Part shown: positions 16,095 through 60,437 of the stretch, piece by piece
How positions within the stretch are numbered: the first letter of the stretch is position 1
Layout: every line of letters begins with the position of its first letter
Assembly (NCBI RefSeq): GCF_029227855.1
Contig: NZ_CP074356.1
Origin: Escherichia coli
GTDB taxonomy: Bacteria; Pseudomonadota; Gammaproteobacteria; Enterobacterales; Enterobacteriaceae
Strand: one strand, 5' to 3'
DNA length: 64,000 nucleotides
Position numbers and translations under genes: made by a program
Notes under the pieces: generated by a model
The model's database searches: none
The model's input: the letters and a program-made list of their open reading frames with translations, nothing else
What the model was told of the DNA's origin: nothing

Positions 16095-16812
16095 AATAAA
16101 TATCCTCCGGCATAGCCGGAGGTTTTTCAAATGCGCCTATAAGGCTCTCTTACCAGCCGCGCCCTAACAGGCGCACACGATCTGACATTTGCATCCAACT
16201 TCGTTACTTACGGCCCGTAAACGGGCTGCCCGGATAGGGAATCGATAACTGCTCTCCCATTTTATCCTCTTCAAGCTGGTGCTTTATGTAATCCTGTATC
16301 TTCGCCGTGTTCTTACCCACCGTATCGACGTAGTACCCTCTGCACCAGAACTCCCTGTTCCTGTATTTGAATTTCAAATCACCAAACTGCTCGTAAAGCA
16401 TCAGACTGCTTTTCCCTTTCAGATATCCCATAAAGCCGGATACGCTCATTTTGGGCGGGATCTCCACAAGCATATGGATATGATCTGCACAGCATTCAGC
16501 TTCCAGAATCCGTACACTTTTCCACTCACACAGCTTTCTCAAAATACTGCCTATTGCTCTACGCTTCTCTCTGTAGAACACCTGTCTTCGGTATTTTGGC
16601 GCAAAAACTATGTGATATTTACAGTTCCATCGGGTGTGCGCTAAGCTCTTTTCGTTCCCCATTGGGACCCCCTTTTGATTTCTTGTTTGACACTTGCAGT
16701 TGCCAGACCGCAAGGTGTTTTAACAAATCAAAAGGGGTTTTAATAACTGGCTTAAAGCTGAAAGCTTTCCGGAACCCCCAGCCTAGCTGGGGGTTTTCTG
16801 TGCACAAGAAAA
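16095..16812 (-). mobile_element. IS200: IS200 insertion sequence (about 0.71 kb; IS200/IS605 family), boundaries +/- 15 bp
   Basis: Contains the 152-aa HUH/Y1 transposase gene, a perfect subterminal palindrome cccccagc-cta-gctggggg (16775-16793) upstream of tnpA, and a second hairpin cctccggc-ata-gccggagg (16104-16122) near the other end. The fur-chiQ spacer is about 0.7 kb longer than I recall for K-12. Confidence 0.85.
16204..16662 (-). CDS. tnpA: IS200 transposase TnpA (152 aa)
   Basis: ORF 16204..16713; start at MGNEKSLAHTRWNCKYHIVFAPKYRR...; HUH motif HIHMLVEI and catalytic-Tyr region YYVDTVG. Confidence 0.92.
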   Translation of the reverse strand: MGNEKSLAHTRWNCKYHIVFAPKYRRQVFYREKRRAIGSILRKLCEWKSVRILEAECCADHIHMLVEIPPKMSVSGFMGYLKGKSSLMLYEQFGDLKFKYRNREFWCRGYYVDTVGKNTAKIQDYIKHQLEEDKMGEQLSIPYPGSPFTGRK

Positions 16813-29548: not shown

Positions 29549-29625
29549 GGCTACGTAGCTCAGTTGGTTAGAGCACATCACTCATAATGATGGGGTCACA
29601 GGTTCGAATCCCGTCGTAGCCACCA
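29549..29625 (+). tRNA. metT: tRNA-Met (CAU), elongator
   Basis: ggctacgtagctcagttggttagagcacatcactcataatgatggggtcacaggttcgaatcccgtcgtagccacca; cloverleaf with CAU anticodon and CCA end. Confidence 0.95.
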
Positions 29626-29633
29626 TCTTTTTT

Positions 29634-29718
29634 GCGGGAGTGGCGAAATTGGTAGACGCACCAGATTTAGGTTCTGGCGCCGCAAGGTGTGCGAGTTCAA
29701 GTCTCGCCTCCCGCACCA
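29634..29718 (+). tRNA. leuW: tRNA-Leu (UAG)
   Basis: gcgggagtggcgaaattggtagacgcaccagatttaggttctggcg...cccgcacca; long variable arm, anticodon UAG. Confidence 0.93.
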
Positions 29719-29741
29719 TTCACCAGAAAGCGTTGTACGGA

Positions 29742-29816
29742 TGGGGTATCGCCAAGCGGTAAGGCACCGGTTTTTGATACCGGCATTCCCTGGTTCGAAT
29801 CCAGGTACCCCAGCCA
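29742..29816 (+). tRNA. glnU: tRNA-Gln (UUG)
   Basis: tggggtatcgccaagcggtaaggcaccggtttttgataccggcattccctggttcgaatccaggtaccccagcca. Confidence 0.93.
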
Positions 29817-29850
29817 TCTTCTTCGAGTAAGCGGTTCACCGCCCGGTTAT

Positions 29851-29925
29851 TGGGGTATCGCCAAGCGGTAAGGCACCGGTTTTTGATACCGGCATTCCCT
29901 GGTTCGAATCCAGGTACCCCAGCCA
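29851..29925 (+). tRNA. glnW: tRNA-Gln (UUG), second copy
   Basis: Identical 75-nt sequence to glnU. Confidence 0.93.
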
Positions 29926-29940
29926 TCGAAGAAACAATCT

Positions 29941-30017
29941 GGCTACGTAGCTCAGTTGGTTAGAGCACATCACTCATAATGATGGGGTCACAGGTTCGAA
30001 TCCCGTCGTAGCCACCA
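29941..30017 (+). tRNA. metU: tRNA-Met (CAU), elongator, second copy
   Basis: Identical 77-nt sequence to metT. Confidence 0.95.
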
Positions 30018-30064
30018 AATTCTGAATGTGTCGAATATGTTCGGCAAATTCAAAAACCAATTTG

Positions 30065-30139
30065 TTGGGGTATCGCCAAGCGGTAAGGCACCGGATTCTG
30101 ATTCCGGCATTCCGAGGTTCGAATCCTCGTACCCCAGCC
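30065..30139 (+). tRNA. glnV: tRNA-Gln (CUG)
   Basis: tggggtatcgccaagcggtaaggcaccggattctgattccggcattccgaggttcgaatcctcgtaccccagcca. Confidence 0.93.
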
Positions 30140-30176
30140 AATTTATTCAAGACGCTGACCTTGTAAGTGCACCCAG

Positions 30177-30251
30177 TTGGGGTATCGCCAAGCGGTAAGG
30201 CACCGGATTCTGATTCCGGCATTCCGAGGTTCGAATCCTCGTACCCCAGCC
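30177..30251 (+). tRNA. glnX: tRNA-Gln (CUG), second copy
   Basis: Identical 75-nt sequence to glnV. Confidence 0.93.
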
Positions 30252-35800: not shown

Positions 35801-37339
35801 ATGGCTTTTGCCTCATTAATTGAACGCCAGCGCATTCGCCTGCTGCTGGCGTTATTATTCGGTGCCTGCGGAACGCTGGCCTTCTCTCCTTACGACGTCT
35901 GGTCTGCGGCGATTATTTCGCTGATGGGGCTTCAGGCGCTGACCTTTAACCGCCGTCCACTCCAGTCTGCCGCTATTGGCTTTTGCTGGGGATTTGGCCT
36001 CTTTGGCAGCGGTATTAACTGGGTCTATGTCAGCATCGCGACTTTTGGCGGAATGCCTGGCCCGGTTAACATCTTCCTGGTGGTACTGCTGGCGGCGTAT
36101 TTGTCGCTGTATACCGGATTATTTGCTGGCGTGCTGTCGCGTCTGTGGCCGAAAACCACCTGGCTGCGCGTGGCTATTGCCGCCCCTGCTCTCTGGCAAG
36201 TGACCGAGTTTCTGCGCGGTTGGGTGCTGACTGGTTTCCCGTGGTTACAGTTCGGCTATAGCCAGATTGATGGCCCGTTAAAAGGGCTGGCACCGATAAT
36301 GGGCGTGGAAGCCATTAACTTCCTGCTAATGATGGTTAGCGGCCTGCTGGCACTGGCGTTGGTCAAACGCAACTGGCGTCCGATGGTGGTGGCCGTCGTG
36401 CTGTTCGCCCTTCCCTTCCCGCTGCGTTACATCCAGTGGTTTACCCCGCAACCGGAGAAAACCATTCAGGTTTCGATGGTTCAGGGCGATATTCCGCAAT
36501 CGCTGAAGTGGGACGAAAGCCAGCTTCTTAATACGCTGAAAATTTATTACAACGCGACGGCACCGCTGATGGGCAAATCGTCGCTGATTATCTGGCCGGA
36601 GTCGGCGATAACCGATCTGGAAATTAATCAGCAACCGTTCCTCAAAGCACTGGACGGTGAGTTGCGCGATAAAGGTAGCTCGCTGGTCACCGGGATTGTC
36701 GACGCGCGTCTCAATAAGCAGAACCGCTACGATACCTACAACACCATCATCACGCTGGGGAAAGGTGCGCCGTACAGCTACGAATCAGCCGATCGCTATA
36801 ACAAAAACCATCTGGTGCCGTTTGGCGAGTTTGTCCCGCTGGAGTCGATTCTGCGTCCGTTAGCGCCGTTCTTTGATCTGCCGATGTCGTCGTTCAGCCG
36901 TGGGCCATATATCCAGCCGCTGCTGTCGGTAAACGGTATTGAGCTTACTGCGGCTATTTGCTACGAGATCATTCTTGGCGAGCAAGTGCGTGATAACTTC
37001 CGCCCGGATACCGACTACCTGCTGACTATCTCCAACGATGCGTGGTTTGGTAAATCTATTGGTCCATGGCAACACTTCCAGATGGCGCGAATGCGTGCGC
37101 TGGAGTTGGCGCGCCCGCTACTGCGCAGCACCAATAACGGCATTACGGCGGTGATTGGCCCGCAGGGTGAGATTCAGGCGATGATCCCGCAATTCACCCG
37201 CGAAGTATTAACCACTAACGTGACGCCGACTACCGGACTCACACCGTACGCACGTACCGGCAACTGGCCGCTGTGGGTACTGACGGCATTGTTTGGTTTT
37301 GCTGCTGTGCTGATGAGCCTGCGTCAACGACGTAAATAA
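35801..37339 (+). CDS. lnt: Apolipoprotein N-acyltransferase (512 aa)
   Basis: ORF track 512 aa [34 protein letters not shown]... Confidence 0.95.
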
Positions 37340-37349
37340 TCCCTTCTTA

Positions 37350-37412
37350 TCGTGCCGGAATACATCCCGTATTTCGGCACGCTCACCGGATGCGGCATCA
37401 GTGCGTTATCCG
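37350..37412. repeat. REP-like palindromic element downstream of lnt
   Basis: gtgccggaatacatcccgtatttcggcac hairpin followed by ccggatgcggcatcagtgcgttatccgg. Confidence 0.5.
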
Positions 37413-37735
37413 GATAACAAAATTCCCCTATCCAACTTTGGCACATCTATTGCTTTGTTATACAAGGCAAAGCTTGAACCAGCATCAGTACAACCCGGTT
37501 GCACCACAGCAATCCACGGGTAGCACCAAAAGAGTGCATTTTAAGAATTTTGCTTCGGAATGGTGCGGCGCATCTCGCAAAAACAAACAATAAAACAGCA
37601 ATATCTTTACATTTAACCAAACTAAATGTTACCTAACAGGCACAACACTGCACAATAAAGTTGCAGACGATAACAACACAAACACTCACAACAGGTATCC
37701 ATGCGTTCTTAACGCAGAAGATAAAGGAGTTGGAT

Positions 37736-38644
37736 ATGCAATTACGTAAACCTGCCACAGCAATCCTCGCCCTGGCGCTTTCCGCAGGACTGGCACAGGC
37801 AGATGACGCCGTCCCGGCAGCAGGCAGTACGCTGGACAAAATCGCCAAAAACGGCGTGATTGTCGTCGGTCACCGTGAATCTTCAGTACCTTTCTCTTAT
37901 TACGACAATCAGCAAAAAGTGGTGGGTTACTCGCAGGATTACTCCAACGCCATTGTTGAAGCAGTGAAAAAGAAACTCAACAAACCGGACTTGCAGGTAA
38001 AACTGATTCCGATTACCTCACAAAACCGTATTCCACTGCTGCAAAACGGCACTTTCGATTTTGAATGTGGTTCTACCACCAACAACGTCGAACGCCAAAA
38101 ACAGGCGGCTTTCTCTGACACTATTTTCGTGGTCGGTACGCGCCTGCTGACCAAAAAGGGCGGCGATATCAAAGATTTCGCCGATCTGAAAGGTAAAGCC
38201 GTAGTCGTCACTTCCGGCACTACCTCTGAAGTTTTGCTCAACAAACTGAATGAAGAGCAAAAAATGAATATGCGAATTATCAGCGCCAAAGATCACGGTG
38301 ACTCTTTCCGCACCCTGGAAAGCGGTCGTGCCGTTGCCTTTATGATGGATGATGCTCTGCTGGCTGGTGAACGTGCGAAAGCGAAGAAACCAGACAACTG
38401 GGAAATCGTCGGCAAGCCGCAGTCTCAGGAAGCCTACGGTTGCATGTTGCGTAAAGACGATCCGCAGTTCAAAAAGCTGATGGATGACACTATCGCTCAG
38501 GTGCAGACCTCCGGTGAAGCGGAAAAATGGTTTGATAAATGGTTCAAAAACCCAATTCCGCCGAAAAACCTGAACATGAATTTCGAACTGTCAGACGAAA
38601 TGAAAGCACTGTTCAAAGAACCGAATGACAAGGCACTGAACTAA
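37736..38644 (+). CDS. gltI: Glutamate/aspartate ABC transporter periplasmic binding protein (302 aa)
   Basis: ORF 37661..38644; start at MQLRKPATAILALALSAGLAQA (signal peptide) with RBS aaggag. Confidence 0.95.
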   Translation: MQLRKPATAILALALSAGLAQADDAVPAAGSTLDKIAKNGVIVVGHRESSVPFSYYDNQQKVVGYSQDYSNAIVEAVKKKLNKPDLQVKLIPITSQNRIPLLQNGTFDFECGSTTNNVERQKQAAFSDTIFVVGTRLLTKKGGDIKDFADLKGKAVVVTSGTTSEVLLNKLNEEQKMNMRIISAKDHGDSFRTLESGRAVAFMMDDALLAGERAKAKKPDNWEIVGKPQSQEAYGCMLRKDDPQFKKLMDDTIAQVQTSGEAEKWFDKWFKNPIPPKNLNMNFELSDEMKALFKEPNDKALN

Positions 38645-38800
38645 TTACAAGAACCAGGGGCGGAAATTCCAGCCCTCTCGATTGTTACGTAGCACGGACA
38701 GACTATACGCCTGATGGTCGTTCCCCATCGGGCCTGAAAACCGCAATACGCTGGGTAACAATCTTCGAGGGTAGCAGTTAACGCTGCTACCCTCTTTTTT
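38640..38800 (+). ncRNA. sroC: SroC small RNA, processed from the gltIJKL transcript (GcvB sponge); ends approximate
   Basis: About 160-nt gltI-gltJ spacer ending in an intrinsic terminator gagggtagcag-ttaacg-ctgctaccctc-tttttt at 38767-38800; this is where I recall sroC lying. Confidence 0.6.
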
Positions 38801-38813
38801 CTGGAGTAGATTT

Positions 38814-39554
38814 ATGTCTATAGACTGGAACTGGGGTATTTTTTTACAACAAGCCCCGTTCGGCAACACCACCTATCTTGGTTGGATCTGGAGTGGTTTT
38901 CAGGTGACGATCGCTTTGTCGATCTGCGCCTGGATTATCGCTTTCCTCGTCGGTTCATTTTTCGGCATTTTACGTACCGTTCCAAACCGTTTTCTCTCCG
39001 GTCTGGGTACGTTGTATGTCGAACTGTTCCGCAACGTGCCGTTGATTGTGCAATTCTTTACCTGGTATCTGGTGATCCCGGAGCTGTTGCCGGAGAAAAT
39101 CGGCATGTGGTTTAAGGCCGAGCTGGATCCCAATATTCAGTTTTTCCTTTCATCCATGCTTTGCCTGGGGCTGTTTACCGCCGCCCGTGTTTGCGAACAG
39201 GTACGCGCCGCGATCCAGTCGCTGCCGCGTGGGCAGAAGAATGCCGCGCTGGCGATGGGTCTGACGCTGCCGCAGGCTTACCGCTATGTACTGTTGCCTA
39301 ATGCTTATCGCGTTATCGTCCCGCCGATGACCTCCGAGATGATGAACCTGGTGAAAAACTCCGCCATCGCCTCGACCATCGGTCTGGTGGATATGGCAGC
39401 GCAGGCCGGTAAATTGCTTGATTACTCAGCCCACGCCTGGGAGTCGTTTACCGCCATTACGCTTGCGTATGTGTTGATTAACGCTTTTATCATGCTGGTG
39501 ATGACGCTGGTTGAACGTAAAGTTCGCCTGCCCGGCAACATGGGGGGCAAATAA
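38814..39554 (+). CDS. gltJ: Glutamate/aspartate ABC transporter permease (246 aa)
   Basis: ORF track 246 aa [29 protein letters not shown]... Confidence 0.95.
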
Positions 39555-40228
39555 TGTACGAGTTTGACTGGAGTTCCATTGTCCCTTCCCTGCCATATCT
39601 GCTGGATGGGCTGGTGATCACCCTGAAAATCACCGTCACGGCAGTCGTGATTGGTATTTTGTGGGGCACCATGCTGGCGGTGATGCGCTTGTCCAGCTTT
39701 GCGCCCGTAGCGTGGTTTGCCAAAGCCTACGTTAACGTATTCCGCTCGATTCCTTTAGTTATGGTTTTGCTGTGGTTTTACCTGATTGTGCCGGGTTTTC
39801 TGCAAAACGTGCTGGGATTATCGCCAAAAAATGATATCCGTTTAATTTCGGCAATGGTGGCGTTTTCGATGTTTGAAGCGGCCTACTATTCAGAGATTAT
39901 CCGTGCCGGTATTCAAAGTATTTCCCGTGGTCAGTCGAGCGCCGCGCTGGCGTTGGGAATGACTCACTGGCAGTCGATGAAACTGATTATTCTGCCGCAG
40001 GCTTTCCGCGCGATGGTGCCGCTGCTGCTCACTCAGGGCATCGTACTGTTCCAGGATACCTCGCTGGTGTATGTGTTATCTCTGGCCGATTTCTTCCGTA
40101 CCGCCTCAACCATTGGTGAGCGTGATGGTACGCAGGTTGAGATGATCCTGTTTGCCGGATTTGTTTATTTCGTTATTAGCCTTAGCGCGTCGTTGTTGGT
40201 CAGCTACTTGAAAAGAAGGACAGCATAA
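39554..40228 (+). CDS. gltK: Glutamate/aspartate ABC transporter permease (224 aa)
   Basis: ORF track 224 aa; start overlaps gltJ stop. Confidence 0.95.
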
Positions 40229-40953
40229 TGATTACCCTGAAAAATGTTTCAAAATGGTATGGTCACTTTCAGGTGCTGACCGACTGCTCAACCGAAGTGA
40301 AAAAAGGCGAAGTGGTGGTGGTTTGCGGCCCGTCTGGTTCCGGTAAATCAACGCTGATTAAAACCGTCAACGGCCTCGAACCGGTGCAGCAAGGTGAAAT
40401 CACCGTCGATGGTATCGTGGTTAACGATAAGAAAACCGATCTGGCAAAGCTGCGTTCCCGCGTCGGGATGGTGTTCCAGCATTTCGAGTTGTTCCCCCAT
40501 TTGTCGATTATTGAAAACCTGACCCTGGCGCAGGTGAAAGTGCTAAAACGCGATAAAGCACCCGCTCGTGAAAAAGCATTGAAATTGCTGGAGCGCGTCG
40601 GGCTTTCCGCTCATGCCAATAAGTTTCCGGCGCAGCTTTCCGGCGGTCAGCAGCAGCGTGTGGCGATCGCTCGCGCATTGTGCATGGATCCTATTGCCAT
40701 GCTGTTCGACGAACCGACATCGGCGCTGGATCCGGAGATGATCAACGAAGTGCTGGACGTAATGGTCGAACTGGCGAATGAAGGAATGACCATGATGGTG
40801 GTGACCCACGAAATGGGCTTTGCCCGTAAAGTGGCGAATCGGGTGATCTTTATGGACGAGGGTAAAATTGTCGAAGACTCGCCGAAAGACGCTTTCTTCG
40901 ATGATCCGAAATCGGACCGCGCAAAAGACTTCCTCGCGAAAATCCTGCATTAA
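40228..40953 (+). CDS. gltL: Glutamate/aspartate ABC transporter ATP-binding protein (241 aa)
   Basis: ORF track 241 aa with Walker [10 protein letters not shown] and signature LSGGQQQR; start overlaps gltK stop. Confidence 0.95.
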
Positions 40954-41070
40954 TCACTCTGGCGCGCATACCCAATTGCGCGCCATCTCACGCTTTATCG
41001 TTTCGCCCCTCGTATCTGTTACATCCTGGCGTTACCCTTGTCGCAAAGAAGCACACAACAAGGAGCAACA

Positions 41071-42006
41071 ATGGCACTGCCAATTCTGTTAGATTGCGAC
41101 CCAGGTCATGACGACGCTATCGCAATAGTTCTTGCCCTCGCCTCACCAGAGCTTGATATCAAAGCAATTACGTCTTCCGCCGGAAACCAGACTCCAGAAA
41201 AAACCTTACGCAATGTTCTGCGTATGCTGACCTTGCTTAATCGCACCGATATTCCGGTGGCAGGCGGCGCGGTAAAACCGTTAATGCGTGAGTTGATTAT
41301 CGCGGACAATGTGCACGGTGAAAGCGGTCTCGACGGCCCGGCATTACCGGAACCGACGTTCGCACCGCAAAACTGTACGGCGGTAGAGCTGATGGCGAAA
41401 ACGCTGCGTGAAAGTGCGGAACCTGTCACGATTGTTTCTACCGGGCCGCAAACTAACGTTGCCTTGCTGCTCAATAGCCATCCGGAACTGCATAGCAAAA
41501 TTGCCCGTATCGTGATTATGGGCGGCGCAATGGGGCTTGGTAACTGGACGCCTGCGGCTGAATTTAATATTTACGTTGACCCGGAAGCGGCAGAAATTGT
41601 CTTCCAGTCAAGGATCCCGGTGGTGATGGCCGGTCTGGATGTTACTCATAAAGCGCAAATCCACGTTGAAGACACCGAGCGTTTCCGCGCGATTGGCAAC
41701 CCTGTTTCAACCATTGTTGCCGAACTGCTGGATTTCTTCCTCGAATATCATAAAGACGAAAAATGGGGCTTTGTCGGCGCACCGCTGCATGACCCATGCA
41801 CCATCGCCTGGCTGTTAAAACCGGAGTTGTTTACCACTGTTGAGCGCTGGGTTGGCGTGGAAACACAAGGGAAATATACCCAGGGTATGACGGTTGTTGA
41901 TTATTATTATCTGACCGGCAATAAACCGAATGCCTCTGTAATGGTCGATGTTGATCGTCAGGGCTTTGTTGATTTACTGGCTGATCGTCTGAAATTTTAC
42001 GCTTAA
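41071..42006 (+). CDS. rihA: Pyrimidine-specific ribonucleoside hydrolase RihA (311 aa)
   Basis: ORF 41038..42006; start at [22 protein letters not shown] (DxDxxxDD nucleoside hydrolase motif) with RBS aggag. Confidence 0.93.
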
Positions 42007-60004: not shown

Positions 60005-60036
60005 CAAAAAAAACCCGCTGATTAAGCGGGTTTTGA
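60005..60036. terminator. Bidirectional terminator between convergent crcB and cspE
   Basis: aaaaaaaacccgct-gattaa-gcgggtttt. Confidence 0.75.
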
Positions 60037-60053
60037 ATTCTTGCTGACGTATC

Positions 60054-60263
60054 TTACAGAGCGATTACGTTTGCAGCAGAAGGGCCTTTGGCACCGTTAG
60101 TGATTTCGAACTCTACGCGCTGACCTTCAGCAAGAGTTTTAAAACCATTAGTCTGGATTGCAGAGAAGTGTACAAACACGTCTTTGCTGCCGTCTTCCGG
60201 AGTAATGAAACCGAATCCTTTGGACTCATTAAACCACTTAACGTTACCTTTAATCTTAGACAT
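60054..60263 (-). CDS. cspE: Cold-shock-domain protein CspE (69 aa)
   Basis: ORF 60054..60347; start at [37 protein letters not shown]... (RNP1/RNP2 motifs). Confidence 0.96.
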
Positions 60264-60437
60264 CAAAATTACCTTTACATGAAAAATAGACACAAATGCT
60301 GTGTCGGTTACCAGTACACCAATTGTGGTACGCTTTGTCCAGTGCAACTTTACTAAAAAGTGATAAAAGTCGCGTTATTTTTGATGTTAATTATTTTACC
60401 CATTGATTTTAAAGAGTTTACTAAAATTTCATTTGTC

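Follow-up and report, generated by a model that had tools for sequence, protein, structure and literature searches.

An intact sroC locus between gltI and gltJ of an Escherichia coli chromosome

Does the strong terminator that lies inside the gltIJKL operon, just before gltJ, serve only the operon, or is it the end of a small RNA that acts elsewhere in the cell? The site was pointed out in a first-pass annotation of a 64-kb window (the whole stretch of DNA that was analysed, with features on its + strand unless stated otherwise), which had been made by reading the raw sequence and which assigned positions 38640-38800 to the known SroC locus. SroC (RF00369; b4763 in E. coli K-12) is known from Vogel 2003 and Miyakoshi 2015. 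It is a textbook mRNA-derived sponge, tying one ABC-transporter operon to the whole GcvB amino-acid regulon. We conclude with very high confidence that the locus is the sroC of an E. coli chromosome, intact, and that it would act as SroC through the mechanism known from the literature, which is extended here to the window's strain. No feature of the sequence speaks against this conclusion.

Identity and genomic setting

A search of the whole window with Rfam 15 retrieved the sroC family (RF00369) at 38640-38802 (+), scoring 174.8 bits (gathering score, 45; E = 7e-37), and all of the model (positions 1-163 of 163) was matched without truncation. The annotation of MG1655 (NC_000913.3) places sroC (b4763), an ncRNA of 163 nt, between gltI and gltJ at 686681-686843 (-). 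The window's copy is identical to it at 163 of 163 positions, and at 231 of 231 with 40-nt flanks. The full-model Rfam score and the identity to MG1655 thus decisively exclude the absence of a significant alignment to sroC, and the alignment to the annotated gene is perfect. The boundaries given by the first-pass annotation agree with the Rfam match and with the annotation transferred from MG1655 (38640-38802) to within 2 nt at most, meaning that a reading of raw sequence recognised a functionally characterised sRNA locus at essentially exact coordinates. sroC is annotated in MG1655 but is absent from the annotation of most RefSeq records.

The gene lies on the sense strand between the end of gltI (38644) and the start of gltJ (38814), an arrangement shared by 94 enterobacterial loci. 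As in the MG1655 annotation, its first 5 nt are at the same time the last 5 of gltI and take in the stop codon TAA at 38642-38644. The gltI coding sequence (37736-38644, +) encodes the Glu/Asp-binding protein of the periplasm and lies in the mRNA from which SroC derives; both a 100%-identical match and the closest genome carry an annotated gltI of 909 nt. Downstream, the ribosome-binding site and coding sequence of gltJ extend over 38804-39554 (+), with GGAG at 38804-38807 and ATG at 38814. The genes follow one another as corC-lnt-gltI-sroC-gltJ-gltK-gltL-rihA, every one on the window's + strand. That the surrounding sequence looked intact was also borne out, as gltI, gltJ, gltK and gltL are uninterrupted open reading frames and no IS5 lies upstream of gltI.

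Over 20 kb, the window is matched best by E. coli JNEC-KY178 (99.9% identity). The window is colinear with MG1655 from position 37629 onwards, which corresponds to MG1655 687854, at the edge of IS5D (687851-689045). This element, located about 105 nt upstream of the gltI start in MG1655, is absent from the lnt-gltI spacer of the window (37340-37735), indicating that the strain is not K-12 and that its gltI promoter region is uninterrupted. Over the 3572 nt common to both genomes there are 90 mismatches (2.5%), none of them in sroC. With sroC at its centre, the longest span free of mismatches (447 nt, 38552-38998) reaches into gltI at its 3' end and ~185 nt into gltJ. At the mean rate, the chance of finding no mismatch in 163 nt is about 0.017 for this single pair of genomes. 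Constraint on the sRNA and its flanks may have kept the span free of mismatches, but so may chance or recombination, and as evidence of constraint it is modest.

Among complete E. coli genomes, sroC was found in 5421 out of 5426, at 99% identity or more in 5249, and the 401-nt region around it was likewise found in 5421 out of 5426. The SroC locus is already known and this copy, identical to the reference, is an ordinary one. It shows no departure from the reference and hence no new biology, and it serves mainly as a correct positive control for the genome scan.

Fold, terminator and read-through

With a folding energy of -66.3 kcal/mol (z = -6.5), the 163-nt sroC is more stable than all 200 of its shuffled sequences. 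In the minimum free energy (MFE) fold, stem-loop 1 occupies 38657-38676 (+; nt 18-37 of SroC), and its helix 1 is paired in 92% of cells across 73 distinct orthologues. Stem-loop 2 is long and interrupted, extends over 38680-38763 (+; nt 41-124) and holds both GcvB-pairing sites.

The intrinsic (Rho-independent) terminator that had been noticed before gltJ is confirmed at 38767-38800 (+). It consists of a 12-bp stem with a UUAA loop (38767-38794), located 19 nt upstream of the gltJ ATG, followed by six T residues (38795-38800). The hairpin has 12 pairs, seven of them G-C, with a 4-nt loop; it folds alone at -21.3 kcal/mol, and its pair probabilities in the partition function are about 1.0. In a consensus scan of 37300-41300, 38767-38794 was by far the strongest of 10 terminator-like sites (shuffles, 4.5 +/- 2.2). 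Among orthologues, the core GGGTAGC/GCTACCC is invariant or nearly so, with helix 8 paired in 99.6% of cells. Both SroC and the monocistronic gltI mRNA have their 3' end in this terminator, and gltJ is the first gene for which read-through is required.

Judged by its sequence this is a strong terminator, yet the literature calls it leaky because the sole gltI promoter also has to supply gltJKL (PMC4474525). By analogy, the same leakiness would apply in the window's strain. According to the same work, one gltI promoter yields the full operon mRNA and, via the leaky Rho-independent terminator, a monocistronic gltI mRNA.

A terminator between binding-protein and permease genes is in the usual place for stoichiometry control. 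The element could in principle be no more than a cis-acting intercistronic attenuator and 3' stabiliser setting the ratio of GltI to GltJKL, with the fragment released from it having no role in trans. However, a bare terminator needs neither the 120 nt of covarying structure upstream of it nor two invariant single-stranded blocks that exactly complement GcvB. Trans activity has moreover been demonstrated by published compensatory mutations (PMC4474525) and by RIL-seq (PMC9299463), and a Salmonella sroC point mutant was reported to stabilise GcvB while gltI and gltJKL levels were unchanged. A role in cis alone is thus very improbable, although a cis role is probably real in addition to that of the sRNA.

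The length of the terminator hairpin differs among lineages. In 53 of the 74 distinct orthologues it has the form GAGGGTAGC-GCT-GCTACCCTT, with 7-9 bp and -13.1 kcal/mol, whereas in Escherichia (including the window, E. albertii and E. whittamii) and in Kluyvera it is about 7 nt longer, with 12 bp (-21.3 kcal/mol). The extended Escherichia hairpin explains why the Rfam consensus fits the 3' end of the E. coli RNA poorly. The outer 3-bp Rfam helix (model positions 12-14 with 160-162) was dropped, since the longer E. coli terminator occupies that region.

The basal helix of the Rfam model (nt 37-41 with 127-131, that is, 38676-38680 with 38766-38770) overlaps the 5' arm of the terminator. It was rejected for the full-length RNA, where it has a pair probability below 0.001 and can be imposed only at a cost of about 10 kcal/mol. 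The same helix is predicted to form while the nascent RNA reaches no further than nt 131-143. Its columns in the alignment are nearly invariant, so that covariation neither supports nor refutes it, and it may at most be a kinetic competitor of termination in these folding predictions.

One reading of this overlap is that the terminator is a tunable element: until the terminator's 3' arm has emerged, the conserved CUCUCG (nt 36-41) of the nascent RNA would pair with CGAGG (nt 127-131), in line with the Rfam consensus, and sequester the base of the terminator 5' arm. The hairpin may in addition have been lengthened independently in Escherichia and Kluyvera, from 7-9 to about 12 bp. We regard the tunable element as doubtful. 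If it were real, a factor or condition favouring the alternative helix could set the ratio of SroC and gltI mRNA to gltJKL, and hence GcvB levels. The 2015 authors raised a regulated terminator as a possibility (PMC4474525), and the cross-genus survey described below documents lineage differences in terminator strength. Tuning of SroC output by terminator strength or by the alternative helix is nevertheless speculative, unlikely and of moderate interest at best.

GcvB-pairing sites and their conservation

Two sites for GcvB are present in stem-loop 2. The first, GGACAGAC (38696-38703, +; nt 57-64), is a perfect 8-bp complement of GcvB nt 156-163 (R3/SL4), with a duplex energy of -15.3 kcal/mol. 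The second, TCGTTCC (38718-38724, +; nt 79-85), forms the apical loop of stem-loop 2 and is a perfect 7-bp complement of GcvB nt 13-19 (SL1), at -10.9 kcal/mol. The search was made against the annotated gcvB of MG1655 (b4443). Energies were taken from site-restricted duplexes only; the whole-molecule RNAduplex output, which gave unrealistically long duplexes, was set aside. In the partition function, the TCGTTCC loop is unpaired with a probability of about 1.0. GGACAGAC lies in an internal bulge and is partly unpaired, with a mean unpaired probability of 0.59 vs 0.41 for the whole RNA. The accessibility of both sites is consistent with published probing data.

These are the sites mapped by structure probing by Miyakoshi, Chao and Vogel (EMBO J 2015, PMC4474525), who described 7- and 8-nt sites separated by 14 nt, one exposed at the tip of stem-loop 2 and one within an internal bulge, and who gave energies of -16.7 and -13.6 kcal/mol for the two. 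The gap in the window is exactly 14 nt, matching the published spacing. The same study showed pairing by the compensatory mutations SroC C87G/GcvB G14C and SroC C63G/GcvB G160C. Both pairing regions coincide exactly with the residues validated in this way: C84 in TCGTTCC is Salmonella C87, opposite GcvB G14, and C60 in GGACAGAC is Salmonella C63, opposite GcvB G160. We name the sites by their GcvB partner because the labels BS1 and BS2 are used inconsistently between two sections of PMC4474525. The Salmonella numbering in that paper equals the E. coli annotation plus 3, and the spacing from the stop codon is equal in the Salmonella subspecies examined. Given this offset, the mature 5' end may lie up to 3 nt upstream of 38640 (38637).

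Complementarity of this size is not statistically unusual, as 226 out of 1000 mononucleotide shuffles of SroC also gave one perfect GcvB match of at least 8 nt and one of at least 7 nt. Equally long matches to GcvB occur in SroC itself at nt 101-108 and 146-152, but these fall in stems or terminators. SroC-GcvB complementarity was consequently rejected as stand-alone evidence, and the case for pairing rests on published experiments together with conservation.

To assess conservation, one genome per species was scanned for loci encoding the GltI peptide WFDKWFKNP, by means of a degenerate pattern. The peptide is encoded 112 nt upstream of sroC; an anchor outside sroC was chosen to avoid circularity. 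We collected 94 gltI-gltJ spacers from roughly 30 genera of Enterobacteriaceae and some Erwiniaceae. GGACAGAC occurs exactly once in every one of them (94/94), and 22 nt after it most have TCGTTCC, the rest mostly CCGTTCC. The 74 distinct spacers of ordinary length were aligned. Invariant in this alignment are GGACAGAC and GG-(T/C)-CGTTCCCC; the first T of TCGTTCC is nearly constant, with C as its alternative, and CGTTCCCC does not vary. Also conserved across the 74 spacers are TCTT and the terminator core GGGTA...(T)ACCC, as are blocks outside the GcvB contacts (e.g. CTCGATTG, AATCTTCGAGGGTAGC and AATCTTCG), while the stems between the blocks change freely.

These stems change in a compensatory manner. 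When the pairs of the MFE structure of the window's sroC were counted on the alignment, 90.2% of cells were paired, a value that is somewhat inflated because the structure was taken from one member of the alignment, vs 41-51% when pairing partners were slid by one to three columns. Changes on both sides of a pair are free of this bias, and they were found in 20 pairs; the covariation score was 0.232, slid controls reached at most 0.065 and none of 500 shuffles attained the observed value. Helices 2, 3 and 6 of stem-loop 2 account for 16 of the pairs changed on both sides. The apical helix bearing the UCGUUCC loop is 95% paired, with double changes in six out of nine pairs. The Rfam consensus structure gave a similar covariation outcome.

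This pattern bears on the idea that the stretch encodes a small protein instead, for instance a 75-aa open reading frame on the minus strand at 38645-38872. The frame appears in the mechanical list of open reading frames and has nothing more in its favour. Orthologues vary by compensatory changes in RNA stems, their frequent indels are not multiples of three, and no genome annotates such a gene. A coding function has a negligible probability.

Several spacers carry insertions. ERIC-like repeats of ~126 nt lie between the gltI stop codon and SroC stem-loop 1 in three spacers of Citrobacter (L034, L039 and L032) and three of Phytobacter (L075, L082 and L085), where they would alter the context of RNase E processing in those species. 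In another spacer (L023) an ERIC-like repeat lies inside SroC, 3' of the apical hairpin, and two highly diverged spacers (L067 and L092) have no recognisable stem-loop 1. The GcvB-binding module GGACAGAC-N14-TCGTTCC is kept in all of the ERIC-inserted and diverged spacers. The contact sites stay invariant while stems covary and repeats insert, and the survey thus independently supports the two GcvB contact sites as the selected core of SroC.

The partner itself, gcvB, lies outside the 64-kb window, as do hfq and rne. It is present in 5425 of the 5426 complete E. coli genomes (at 99% identity or more in 5389), and by analogy is almost certainly present in the genome from which the window was taken.

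Mechanism, targets and related systems

That SroC is cut from the 3' region of gltI and sponges GcvB, as the first-pass annotation had stated, agrees with PMC4474525 and with a 2022 review (PMC9438474). Most of the mechanistic experiments were carried out in Salmonella, and the E. coli homologues were reported to be equally functional (PMC4474525). In the window's strain, transcription from the gltI promoter would either stop at the leaky terminator at 38767-38800, giving the monocistronic gltI mRNA, or read through into gltJKL. RNase E, acting in a 5'-end-dependent and Hfq-guided manner, would cut the terminated transcript near the gltI stop codon and release a stable SroC of ~163 nt. This tightly folded RNA would present UCGUUCC in its apical loop and GGACAGAC in the internal bulge 14 nt upstream. 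Pairing of both sites with GcvB nt 13-19 and 156-163 would then lead to decay of GcvB by RNase E. The processing, the Hfq dependence and the decay of GcvB are taken from the literature and should hold by analogy in this strain.

SroC biogenesis needs RNase E; in vitro, correct cleavage of a precursor that carries a 5' monophosphate and a 20-nt leader requires Hfq, and an RNase E 5'-sensor mutant accumulates longer SroC intermediates (PMC4474525). SroC depletes GcvB post-transcriptionally, in a manner dependent on Hfq and RNase E, and deletion of sroC extends GcvB's half-life from 1.7 min to more than 15 min (PMC4474525).

A processed 5' end also bears on whether SroC could be transcribed independently from a promoter of its own in the 3' end of gltI, as a type I 3' UTR sRNA like DapZ or MicL. 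We detected no sigma-70-like promoter on the + strand of 37300-41300; this was a crude consensus search, which leaves the proposal some room. The requirement of biogenesis for RNase E and for a 5'-monophosphate precursor with a 20-nt leader (PMC4474525) argues against it as well, and we consider an independent promoter highly unlikely.

GcvB represses many mRNAs of amino-acid transport and metabolism, and gltI is one of its targets through a CA-rich site in the 5' UTR, as identified with the 'delta-CA' mutant (PMC4474525). In the window, a CA-rich element complementary to the GcvB R1 seed is found in the gltI 5' UTR at 37660-37693 (+), with boundaries drawn from complementarity only and a predicted duplex of -36.9 kcal/mol with GcvB nt 63-94. 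GcvB would repress gltI through this site along with its many other targets, and SroC would thereby de-repress its parental mRNA and the rest of the GcvB regulon. As gltI itself is repressed by GcvB, SroC would close a feed-forward loop.

GcvB is not the only target described for SroC. In Salmonella, MgrR was reported as a second sponge target, along with the fliE and flhBAE mRNAs (Acuna 2016 and Fuentes 2015, cited in PMC9438474 and PMC5418344). The main targets in the window's strain might accordingly be MgrR, in the polymyxin/EptB circuit, or the flagellar mRNAs, a proposal that is compatible with the main explanation and that could account for conserved blocks outside the GcvB contacts such as CTCGATTG and AATCTTCGAGGGTAGC. 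However, in E. coli we found no convincing site outside terminator sequences at which SroC could pair with MgrR, as all complementary stretches of at least 7 nt involve the MgrR terminator. GcvB is also the overwhelmingly dominant partner in stationary phase in E. coli RIL-seq, in which GcvB-SroC chimeras make up ~0.1% of GcvB reads during exponential growth but ~70% once stationary phase is reached (PMC9299463). MgrR or flagellar mRNAs are unlikely to be the main targets here, and GcvB is retained in that role.

The window's copy has the same 163-nt sequence, gltI-gltJ position, fold, terminator and GcvB sites as the SroC of E. coli K-12, from which the strain differs only outside sroC, by the lack of IS5D upstream of gltI and by flanking genes that are ~2.5% divergent. 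The SroC of Salmonella and of most Enterobacteriaceae has the same GGACAGAC-N14-(T/C)CGTTCC module, SL1/SL2 architecture, GGGTAGC...GCTACCC core and synteny, whereas its stems differ by compensatory changes and its terminator mostly has 7-9 bp instead of the ~12 bp of Escherichia and Kluyvera.

Processed (type II) 3' UTR sRNAs and sponges such as CpxQ, SdhX, NarS, OppZ and 3'ETS-leuZ resemble SroC in their release by RNase E, their use of the parental terminator and their binding of Hfq. OppZ likewise derives from an ABC-transporter operon, and 3'ETS-leuZ is likewise a sponge. Unlike these RNAs, SroC derives from a leaky terminator inside an operon, not from the operon's end. It also differs in acting mainly on another sRNA, through two short contacts that lie apart, instead of on an mRNA through a single seed.

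Other RNA elements were retrieved elsewhere in the window. A full-length match to Rfam STnc490, an Hfq-binding RNA, lies at 16672-16795 (-) with 146 bits vs 56. By offset to the JNEC-KY178 annotation, it lies a short way downstream of chiQ on the same strand as chiPQ, where it runs antisense to the 3' end of fur and overlaps it; from sequence it looks like another candidate for a 3' UTR-derived sRNA. The Rfam cspA thermoregulator was matched at 60006-60364 (-), with 119 bits vs 78, on the 5' UTR and coding region of cspE. As cspE is a paralogue of cspA, this is likely a paralogue match and gives no evidence of thermoregulation of cspE. Seven tRNA genes (Met-Leu-Gln-Gln-Met-Gln-Gln), whose repeated Gln and Met units displaced one BLAST placement, lie between asnB and ubiF at 29549-30249 (+).
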